A DNA stretch of 22,667 nucleotides from a virus (taxonomy: Duplodnaviria; Heunggongvirae; Uroviricota; Caudoviricetes): the IMG/VR virus record IMGVR_UViG_2778261501_000002, positions 1-22,667 of that record. One strand, written 5' to 3'. This document shows positions 5,789-6,468 of the stretch, in pieces (within the stretch, counting starts at the first letter, position 1; the number at the start of each line of letters is the position of its first letter). The notes below the pieces were generated by a model that searched no databases, was not told the DNA's origin, and saw nothing but the letters and a program-made list of their open reading frames with translations. The translations under genes were made by a program, and so were the position numbers.

Positions 5789-5995
5789 ATGCACAAAACA
5801 GAACCCAAAATCGTCGCGCCTGGCTACACAGATGAGGAAATTTATGAGTGGATGACAAAGAAGCTGGCAGCTATAAACCAGCTTCGTGAAGTGCTGTCTT
5901 ATCGACAGGAAACAATAGACTCCTTAAAAAAACTGGATCAGGAAATCACGGTTTTATCACAGGATGTTACTTTAGATATTGTGCAGACAAATTAG
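5789..5995 (+). CDS. Hypothetical small protein (68 aa), predicted helical/coiled-coil
   Basis: GAGGAG SD 7 nt upstream of ATG 5789; AT-rich; 3' end overlaps the convergent 144-aa gene by 29 nt. Confidence 0.45.
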   Translation: MHKTEPKIVAPGYTDEEIYEWMTKKLAAINQLREVLSYRQETIDSLKKLDQEITVLSQDVTLDIVQTN

Positions 5996-6401
5996 GATCC
6001 CATTCATTTTCGTCAAAATCATCAAAGTGATGAATTTGTGATCTCCAGTCTCGATAATCTAAAAATTTCTGGGCGGTTACGCTTATTTTATCAAGTGTGA
6101 GTTCATCCTGAATTGAAAGAAGAAGTTCATCAAATTTCATCTCATTAATCTGTTTTGGCATCCAGTGATGCTTCATCAGAATAAGGTGAACCAGAGCCTT
6201 TTTCCCATTCAACTGATTATAGGGAGTGCCGAATTTCTTCCGGTGCTCATGTAAGACAAGGTCCAAAAGAGTAAGTAATGTTGCCCTTGATTCAACTTTG
6301 CTTATTTCGACTGATGACACTACCCCACTGATTTCAATGCCCCGATACTTTCCAACATTTTCACAGTGGGATTTGTACAGCGTATAGATATTACCGGACA
6401 T
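5967..6401 (-). CDS. Hypothetical protein (144 aa), AT-rich cargo gene
   Basis: ATG at 6399-6401 with AGGAAA SD; AT-rich codon usage unlike the flanking structural genes; no family recognised. Confidence 0.5.
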   Translation of the reverse strand: MSGNIYTLYKSHCENVGKYRGIEISGVVSSVEISKVESRATLLTLLDLVLHEHRKKFGTPYNQLNGKKALVHLILMKHHWMPKQINEMKFDELLLSIQDELTLDKISVTAQKFLDYRDWRSQIHHFDDFDENEWDPNLSAQYLK

Positions 6402-6417
6402 TTCTTTTCCTTTTGCG

Positions 6418-6468
6418 TTGTTGGGGATAACCAGATTAACCGAATCCTTGTTGTTGGGGAATAACCAG
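6418..6468. promoter_or_regulatory. Two 17-18 bp direct repeats in the promoter region of the 144-aa gene
   Basis: TTGTTGGGGATAACCAG (6418-6434) and TTGTTGGGGAATAACCAG (6451-6468), phased about 33 bp apart, immediately upstream (minus-strand sense) of ATG 6401. Confidence 0.45.

Follow-up and report, generated by a model that had tools for sequence, protein, structure and literature searches.

In phage lambda, the rexAB genes lie between cI and the left operator and promoter (OL/PL) and are co-transcribed with cI, and the region beyond OL carries N, ral and sieB. SieB is a membrane protein. In phage P22, sieB/esc is an early-left exclusion gene whose expression is altered by a phage antisense transcript, the sas RNA. 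Extra phage genes with their own promoter and terminator are called morons; to our knowledge, neither a shared leader nor a convergent partner gene is part of the moron concept. Here, we describe two convergent genes, encoding proteins of 68 and 144 amino acids (aa), and the leader that precedes the longer gene, in a 22,667-nt stretch of Caudoviricetes DNA (IMG/VR record IMGVR_UViG_2778261501_000002, positions 1 to 22,667; hereafter, the window). The window is a decayed prophage of the SfIV/e14 type in E. coli. The pair (5789-6468) lies downstream of a cI-like repressor gene, and the first-pass annotation, which was made from the sequence of the window, assigned it to a slot equivalent to that of rexAB, as a classic site of prophage exclusion or abortive-infection cargo.

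We propose that the locus is probably an example of a module that recurs among temperate phages of enterobacteria and is composed of a partner gene, an antisense cargo gene and a leader, in which a cargo of the lysogen is silenced at induction. The partner, here the early-left 68-aa gene, would be off in the lysogen and would come on with the inactivation of the repressor. The cargo, here the 144-aa gene, would be transcribed in the lysogen from its own signals and translated under the control of the leader, which would form two interleaved helices followed by one or two hairpins, with a 3' arm that abuts or covers the ribosome-binding site. The long 3' end of the cargo transcript would be antisense to the 68-aa gene and, at induction, early-left transcription would proceed antisense across the whole cargo gene and its leader and shut the cargo off. 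Because of this shut-off, the phage's own lytic growth would escape the action of the cargo, for which sieB and the sas RNA of P22 offer a precedent, although the antisense RNA would here be no more than read-through from the early-left genes.

The two open reading frames (ORFs) were found where the first-pass annotation had placed them, at 5789-5995 on the plus strand (68 aa from ATG, with the Shine-Dalgarno sequence GAGGAG 6 nt upstream) and at 5967-6401 on the minus strand (144 aa), and they overlap tail to tail by 29 nt at their 3' ends. In contrast to its statement that neither protein matched a recognised family, homology searches assigned both genes to named, uncharacterised families, and the gene pair itself is thus of already-known kinds. 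The 144-aa protein matched the NCBIfam model NF033230 (ECs1072 family phage-associated protein) with 157.8 bits (cutoff, 70), residues 4-144 aligning with profile positions 2-142 of 142, and it matched phrog_5286 at 1.5e-90. Further, the identical gene is annotated as ECs1072 family in RefSeq. The 68-aa protein matched phrog_1744 at 6e-35 and was 41% identical over 66 aa (E 1e-16) to YdfC as annotated in the Qin-like phages Evi and PPompW, and 44% identical to a Proteus prophage protein. It is thus a member of the YdfC family by sequence homology, a family that has no Pfam or NCBIfam model for scoring. Both ORFs also occur in Shigella phage SfIV, where the encoded proteins are 100% and 97% identical to those of the window.

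Homologues of ECs1072 with 25-37% identity were found in Yersinia, Pectobacterium, Proteus and Serratia prophages, where they adjoin the repressor, are all preceded by the leader, and are transcribed toward the repressor, antisense to the early-left genes. The 95 nt upstream of these homologues were far better conserved than the proteins and followed the pattern GUGCCUG-N9-CCACCUCAGGCGGCGGUGG-UAU-CUUGG-N14-CCAAG-AAGG-N7-AUG. A 21-nt core pattern of this leader was present in at least 120 (>120) IMG/VR contigs. In most of the copies listed, the distance from the start of the pattern to the start codon was 51-58 nt, and ECs1072-like proteins accounted for only 23 of the 109 downstream ORFs among the matches listed. 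With a looser pattern, 85 distinct downstream proteins were collected, and these formed 26 clusters (at least 26 cargo families) that include DUF1883, a BssS-family protein, zinc-ribbon proteins, a membrane protein and many unknowns. SieB (Pfam PF14163) was located behind a second copy of the leader in a Yersinia prophage. Rfam 15, searched at the gathering threshold with the window and ten related loci, gave no match to the leader, nor did a permissive scan of the canonical leader, and a literature search for the leader core sequence found no paper containing it. The leader is apparently widespread and undescribed. Leader-cargo cassettes were also observed in tandem, two or three on one strand (locus L009, 5914-7321; three copies in L107; also L034, L030, L041 and L043), as in a Yersinia prophage in which ECs1072 is followed by SieB.

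The cargo between conserved flanks was exchangeable. Homology between SfII and the window extended to 5700 and resumed at 6471, and 5701-6470 was exchanged as one block. In its place, SfII has a cargo gene for 63 aa and, converging on it, an unannotated 68-aa ORF whose sequence is unrelated. The edges of the swapped module lie beside the terminator at 5711-5730 on the left and inside the leader, at 6470/6471, on the right. Likewise, the cargo was replaced by another gene between identical flanks in e14 of E. coli K-12. The convergent partner was also recurrent: an ORF of at least 45 aa faced the cargo in 129 of 131 cassettes, and most of these ORFs ran 4-227 nt into the 3' end of the cargo, although some of the longest overlaps may reflect spurious ORFs. 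The YdfC-family profile matched 41 of the 99 unique partners and was the commonest type, and others belonged to a second family, of which e14 YmfJ and Aeromonas phage gp20 are typical. Thus, partner and cargo do not co-vary, in that one partner family faces many cargo families.

To describe the structure of the leader, we used per-sequence folds and a covariance model, as shifts of register in a MAFFT alignment had hidden the second hairpin from RNAalifold. In the per-sequence folds, the hairpin proximal to the Shine-Dalgarno sequence had at least eight arm sequences, including the pairs UCUUGG/CCAAGA, AUCCUC/GAGGAU, UACUGG/CCAGUA, CUCUGUU/AACAGAG and AUUGUU/AACAAU, and its 3' arm abutted or covered the Shine-Dalgarno sequence. 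In the covariance-model alignment of 116 copies, four of its six pairs had changed on both sides; the covariation score and the count of double changes were reached in 0 of 500 shuffles, and the signal disappeared when the partners were slid. Upstream of this hairpin, two interleaved helices, GCCUG(G)/(U)CAGGC and CCACC/GGUGG, could be formed. In a variant lineage, GCCGGG/CCCGGC was found together with CCACG/CGUGG; further variants were GCCCGG/CCGGGC in Rac and CACU/AGUG in one sieB leader. The co-change of the two upstream helices is suggestive of pairing, and only suggestive because few independent events were available. The two helices may be alternative pairings, since their loops are of lengths that do not suit a compact H-type pseudoknot well.

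In the window, the leader is a sieB-type variant of ~95-115 nt at 6402-6515 on the minus strand, which ends at the start of the 144-aa gene and has the Shine-Dalgarno sequence AAGGAAAAG. The covariance model R1 detected it as a member of the family at 6428-6515 (minus strand; 30.1 bits, E about 1e-4 to 8e-4). Helix S1 would pair GCCUG (6496-6500) with CAGGC (6478-6482) and helix S2 would pair 6484-6489 with 6471-6475, both on the minus strand. The window leader aligned with the Yersinia and Rac sieB leaders as a longer subtype, including both copies of a C-rich motif, CCCC(A/U)ACA, which in this subtype occurs twice, ~33 nt apart, ahead of the ribosome-binding site. The sequence upstream of the window leader (ACTTAGCTGTTATGTGCCTG) is common to SfII and e14, whose canonical leaders scored 59 and 53 bits, respectively.

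This alignment accounts for the two direct repeats that the first-pass annotation had noted in the promoter of the 144-aa gene. The repeats are present, at 6417-6434 (GTTGTTGGGGATAACCAG) and 6450-6468 (GTTGTTGGGGAATAACCAG), with a 33-nt period and one indel, and a gapped pattern made from them had three matches in the window versus 0.15 expected. They are not a private promoter feature; as aligned, they are the two conserved C-rich motif copies of the sieB-type leader. A third, weaker copy of the motif (CTGGTCCCCATCAACAAG) lies 5' of the 68-aa gene on the plus strand (5742-5762) and forms the inverted-repeat pairs I4/I5 with 6418-6437 and 6447-6460. The sequence CCCCAWCAACAA, allowing at most one mismatch, had two matches versus 0.23 expected, a marginal excess since 2 of 100 shuffles reached the observed count. 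An invertible segment bounded by terminal inverted repeats (5742-5762 versus 6418-6460) was considered and is unlikely, as there was no hix-like sequence, the match was short and the shared motif fitted better. An RfaH ops element (GGCGGTAG, resembling GGCGGCGG) was rejected because the TAG was not conserved.

The sieB slot of Rac and the ymfI/ymfJ region of e14 resembled the locus most closely. The order in Rac is racR, ydaG, ydaF convergent with sieB (4-nt overlap), a divergent copy of the leader, KilS and kilR. As in the window, a repressor gene is thus followed by small early-left genes, the last of which is overlapped tail to tail by an antisense accessory gene, and a small RNA (KilS) is encoded on the early-left strand beyond that gene. 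Unlike SieB, ECs1072 is predicted to be soluble and has no known exclusion phenotype; it showed no similarity to SieB and no match to PF14163. The order in e14 is ymfK (repressor), ymfJ convergent with ymfI (63-nt overlap), a canonical leader of 53 bits, the 'ymfH' region, xisE and intE. This is the direct positional counterpart of the locus, with the same sequence upstream of the leader, a convergent overlap, an STnc100-like 'ymfH' and then xis and int. However, YmfI belongs to another cargo cluster and YmfJ to a different partner family, and the function of neither is known. In an SOS time course, ymfJ was induced late (log2 4-4.8) together with intE and ymfM, and the YmfJ protein was detected, whereas ymfI changed much less than ymfJ (PMC11002266). 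This pattern agrees with a partner under repressor control and a cargo that is expressed separately.

The region around the repressor of the window indicated how the 68-aa gene may be controlled. The cI-like gene (4757-5449, plus strand) encodes a helix-turn-helix (HTH) and S24 peptidase protein (Pfam Peptidase_S24, 7e-19; HTH_3/HTH_26), which is annotated as a CI-like repressor in SfII, and a cro-like gene lies at 4399-4659 on the minus strand. The cI gene has its own intrinsic terminator at 5469-5486 on the plus strand (GGCCACCGAAAGGTGGCT, then TTTTT). Beyond it, there are two OL-like operator palindromes, TTGC-N7-GCAA, at 5504-5518 and 5526-5540, and palindromes of the same type are located between cro and cI (4674-4688 and 4722-4736). 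A weak candidate promoter of the PL type (TTGCAT, 5526-5531; TATCTT, 5549-5554) is directed rightward; its hexamers were read from the sequence and are below the threshold of the promoter scanner. We infer that the palindromes at 5504-5540 constitute OL together with a weak rightward PL-type promoter. A 58-aa ORF with a TTG start (5526-5702, plus strand) is also present within this putative early-left leader region, the DNA of which is 99% conserved with SfII and may be either coding or an RNA region of the nut/put type.

The pair lies downstream of the cI terminator, as the first-pass annotation stated, not directly after it, since ~300 nt with the two operator-like palindromes separate the terminator from the start of the 68-aa gene. 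The comparison with rexAB is apt in that accessory genes near a repressor could be expressed by the lysogen. Unlike lambda, however, a terminator and operators intervene here, the 144-aa gene is convergent to cI, and Pfam and PADLOC indicated no homology of either protein to RexA or RexB. Because the cI terminator and the OL-like palindromes precede it, the pair occupies the position of N/ral/sieB in lambda rather than that of rexAB.

In prophage Qin and related phages, ydfC is located downstream of the dicA repressor gene, on the strand shared with dicF and dicB (dicA-ydfABC-dicF-dicB). A matching position downstream of a cI/DicA-type repressor gene was found in the window, Qin, Evi/PPompW and the Proteus prophage. 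The DNA upstream of the 68-aa gene showed no homology to that upstream of ydfC in Evi or Proteus. The 68-aa gene would be under repressor control and is probably the first gene of a repressor-controlled early-left operon; since it lies beyond both the cI terminator and the OL-like operators, it should be off in the lysogen and expressed once the repressor has been inactivated. The AlphaFold2 (AF2) model of its product (pLDDT 86) consists of a conserved N-terminal segment of 14 residues (EPKIVAPGYTDEEIYEW) followed by one long helix (residues 15-67). Homology and position identify the 68-aa gene as a genuine, conserved part of the phage backbone and not as AT-rich cargo.

The first-pass annotation described both genes as more AT-rich than their flanks. 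This was correct, to a modest extent, for the 144-aa gene (37.9% GC), which is the only compositional outlier. The 68-aa gene (40.6%) was close to cI (41.8%) and to the spacer at 5450-5788 (42.2%); the mean of the whole window was 46.8% and the right flank (6516-6918) was 53.8%. Similarly, the idea that the slot holds accessory cargo applies to the 144-aa gene, which is antisense, has its own terminators, is swapped in relatives and occupies a cassette of the sieB type, and not to the 68-aa gene of the YdfC family.

The 144-aa product is predicted to be an all-helical, cytoplasmic protein (AF2 model, pLDDT 78.5, pTM 0.78), near-neutral and hydrophilic (pI 6.4). An exhaustive profile search resolved the ECs1072 family into 76 clusters at 50% identity, nearly all of 145-155 aa, stand-alone and from Enterobacterales, with few conserved columns (L50, R54, L64, G66, A69, H72 and W134). 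Transcription of the gene on the minus strand would end at one of two sites. The first is a terminator-like hairpin inside the 68-aa ORF (5860-5885; 9-bp stem, -15.6 kcal/mol, z = -3.6, then UUUGU), and the second is an intrinsic terminator at 5711-5730 (AAGCGTCCTGTAGGGCGCTT, then TTTTTTG; centroid -11.5 kcal/mol), which might also be a 5' hairpin of the 68-aa mRNA. In SfII, the upstream intergenic space is 48 nt, and a cargo promoter would thus have to be in or beside the leader. A sigma-54 promoter for the 144-aa gene was rejected because no GG-N10-GC was present. In the growth-transition table of an O157 Sakai transcriptome, ECs1072 is listed at -2.13, and the passage on this transition does not describe prophage induction (PMC2241611).

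The 144-aa gene resembles a moron in having its own terminators, a lower GC content and a patchy presence among collinear relatives, and ECs1072 genes occupy two classic positions of morons, one adjoining the immunity region and the other lying between Q and the genes for lysis. It differs from a moron in its shared, conserved, structured leader and its recurrent convergent partner. The combination of leader, convergent partner and swappable cargo is apparently an undescribed variant of the moron theme. As for function, ECs1072 is most likely, by association only, a lysogen-expressed exclusion or host-modulating protein, like SieB in the same cassette elsewhere.

Several results weigh against this proposal. 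First, homology provided no defence, toxin or other function for ECs1072: searches of Pfam, PADLOC and a PDB sequence profile gave no match for the 144-aa protein or for a 47-member ECs1072 alignment, and Foldseek of the ECs1072 model against BFVD gave a best E of 0.7. PADLOC-DB 2.0 matched zero families at E up to 1 with either the 68-aa or the 144-aa protein, and Pfam gave no match for the 68-aa protein. The checks that the first-pass annotation had named for a defence function, namely PADLOC on both proteins and structure prediction followed by Foldseek on the 144-aa protein, thus yielded no defence model and an all-helical model with no close structural match in BFVD. Further, PADLOC gave no match for ten other cargo families behind the leader, and neither the BssS-family protein nor DUF1883 is a known defence protein. 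Second, the signals in the window are weak. The PL-like promoter agreed at 7 of 12 positions, no sigma-70 promoter upstream of the 144-aa gene passed the scanner, and the window leader is a divergent, low-scoring member of its family (canonical copies scored 60-104 bits under model R1). Third, leader fold energies were no better than those of shuffles, the reverse strand folded ~2 kcal/mol better in most leader copies, and counts of G-U versus A-C on the model-fitted alignment were contradictory and confounded by register errors. Finally, the antisense shut-off of the cargo is read from the geometry of the loci only.

An alternative, which we consider rather unlikely though still live, is that the 68-aa and 144-aa genes constitute a dedicated two-component system, such as a defence, abortive-infection or toxin-antitoxin-like system, in which the two proteins act together. 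Three observations favor such functional pairing and likewise count against the independence of partner and cargo noted above. Co-inheritance of the two genes was evident in E. coli (present in 421 and 424 of 5426 complete genomes), both are swapped together relative to SfII, and the convergence of YdfC-like and ECs1072-like genes recurs in ST64B and KPP5665-2. In these two phages we found intact, unannotated ECs1072 genes (ST64B, L003 3281-3715, 144 aa; Klebsiella phage KPP5665-2, L004 3818-4291, 157 aa). They are located between the Q antiterminator and holin genes, antisense to the late operon and without the canonical leader, and are convergent with Sb50 and with a 118-aa ORF overlapping the annotated GP45, respectively, both YdfC-like (E 1e-6 and 9e-5). 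In contrast, YdfC-like partners face many unrelated cargo families, and the partners of ECs1072 themselves differ, being a 117-aa ORF in Yersinia and a 190-aa ORF in Proteus, with no gene called in Pectobacterium. Moreover, neither protein of the pair had a PADLOC or Pfam match, and the convergent layout is atypical of toxin-antitoxin operons. A type III toxin-antitoxin system (ToxIN-like) was rejected separately, since only two imperfect motif copies were present and these are part of a leader common to unrelated genes. The 144-aa protein is all-helical, and ToxN/AbiQ were not among its top PDB fold matches.

Somewhat less probable still is that the leader works mainly as DNA, through palindromic promoter or operator half-sites or as a recombination flank for cassette exchange, or on the early-left RNA, in processing or termination. 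Both upstream helices are equally palindromes in DNA and their symmetric changes would fit co-evolving operators, the reverse strand folds slightly better, the breakpoint of homology with SfII (6470/6471) is inside the leader, and the canonical leader contains an extended -10-like motif, TGnTATCTT. Against this, most copies of the leader keep a constant spacing to the start codon of the cargo, and the covarying hairpin has a 3' arm that touches or overlaps the Shine-Dalgarno sequence and varies together with it. In addition, the leader had one orientation relative to the cargo at all loci examined. These three features argue for a leader that folds in the cargo mRNA.

That ECs1072 is instead an ordinary lytic-cycle or regulatory phage function is very improbable: although the family is widespread in Enterobacterales temperate phages (the 76 clusters above) at a conserved position, ECs1072 is antisense to both operon types that hold it, is dispensable (its place is taken by other cargo in SfII and e14, and 5783-7766 is deleted in one E. 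coli lineage) and occurs in no more than 7.8% of complete E. coli genomes versus 51% for the flanking non-coding region.

Beyond the module proposal itself, a broader and more tentative possibility is that the leader is an undescribed cis-regulatory RNA, with a pseudoknot or switch and hairpins that occlude the ribosome-binding site and display CCCC(A/U)ACA loops. It would mark a hypervariable lysogeny cargo cassette between the leader and a convergent early gene, often YdfC-like, and would be switched either by convergent transcription or by a factor that recognises the loops in trans. The 26 or more cargo families, of which ECs1072 is the commonest, would then represent prophage proteins for exclusion or host modulation that are for the most part unexplored, and in K-12 they could be approached through e14 ymfI and Rac sieB.

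If the architecture holds, one rule, namely a leader and a convergent early gene that bracket a swappable small gene, would explain a recurrent unannotated feature of enterobacterial prophages, and it would extend to three cryptic prophages of K-12. The leader would also serve as a homology-independent sequence handle for collecting families of lysogen-expressed accessory proteins. It exposes annotation errors, including the unannotated ECs1072 genes of ST64B and KPP5665-2, a zinc-ribbon cargo of Evi hidden beneath an ORF that is probably on the wrong strand, and the non-coding ymfH and SfIVp35. Further, how a prophage switches off its own exclusion genes at induction becomes a testable question. 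The gene pair as first flagged had a more ordinary outcome, with no evidence for defence from homology searches, and the value of follow-up lies mainly in the leader and the cassette architecture.

A non-coding region adjoins the leader. The segment at 6512-6735, on the early-left (plus) strand and divergent from the cargo, is a GC-rich, STnc100/PasD-like region that matched RF02076 over the full length of the model with 32.2 bits (E 8e-5), which is below the gathering score of 47 and thus does not make it a member of STnc100. The match lies 12 nt from the window leader, on the opposite strand, and the same arrangement was found with a true STnc100 (108 bits) in KPP5665-2. In a BLAST search with two STnc100-like sequences, no copy adjoining the leader was found in the viral loci. 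In Stx2 phages, STnc100 is located 75 nt downstream of stx2B (PMC12370729), and STnc100 has been reported to be related to PasD (bioRxiv 10.64898/2026.05.13.724894). The wider GC-rich (54%) stretch at 6512-6900 (plus strand) was present in 2780 of 5426 complete E. coli genomes, in up to five copies per genome, and is annotated variously as 'hypothetical protein', as a frameshifted coding sequence or, in K-12 e14, as ymfH; the e14 copy had a weak match to DicF (28.5 bits). Rather than a protein, this stretch probably encodes an early-left-strand small RNA that belongs to the STnc100/PasD group. A 114-aa ORF at 6320-6664 (minus strand), the counterpart of which in SfIV is annotated as the protein SfIVp35 (L002 4738-5082), extends across the whole leader into the beginning of the 144-aa gene. 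Because it overlies conserved non-coding elements, this ORF and SfIVp35 are probably spurious.

Rightward of the cro-like and cI-like genes, the window carries yfdR, DUF551, yfdT, xis and int. The closest genomes in our collection (AR_0118 and others) were 100% identical to the window and yet lacked 5783-7766. In total, eight E. coli genomes (AR_0118, Ecol_224 and others), otherwise 99.8-100% identical, lacked exactly these 1984 bp, which extend from just ahead of the 68-aa start codon into the DUF551 gene. Leftward of cro, a ymfL fragment is fused to terminase fragments. The decay of the prophage is evident at 2814-4406, where a truncated ymfL and small- and large-terminase fragments are followed by tail sheath and tube genes, and the replication, Q and lysis modules of intact relatives are missing. 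The tRNA-Thr gene beside proA is the integration site of the intact relatives. The remainder of the window (9703-22667) starts with a second integrase, followed by a compact element with genes for a major capsid protein, a TolA-like protein and HTH proteins. Since the element ends near tRNA-Thr in related genomes, it appears to be a second, tandem element at one attachment site.

In phage Evi (L140), a 68-aa zinc-ribbon ORF (2708-2914, minus strand) was accompanied by a leader-like element at 2902-2992 (minus strand; 27.7 bits). The annotated Evi ORF at 2573-2929 (plus strand) is antisense to this zinc-ribbon ORF with its leader-like element, so its annotation probably refers to the wrong strand. 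Another antisense cargo of Evi (77 aa, 3627-3860) had a different leader, in which a hairpin pairs CCCUC with GGAGGG of the ribosome-binding site.

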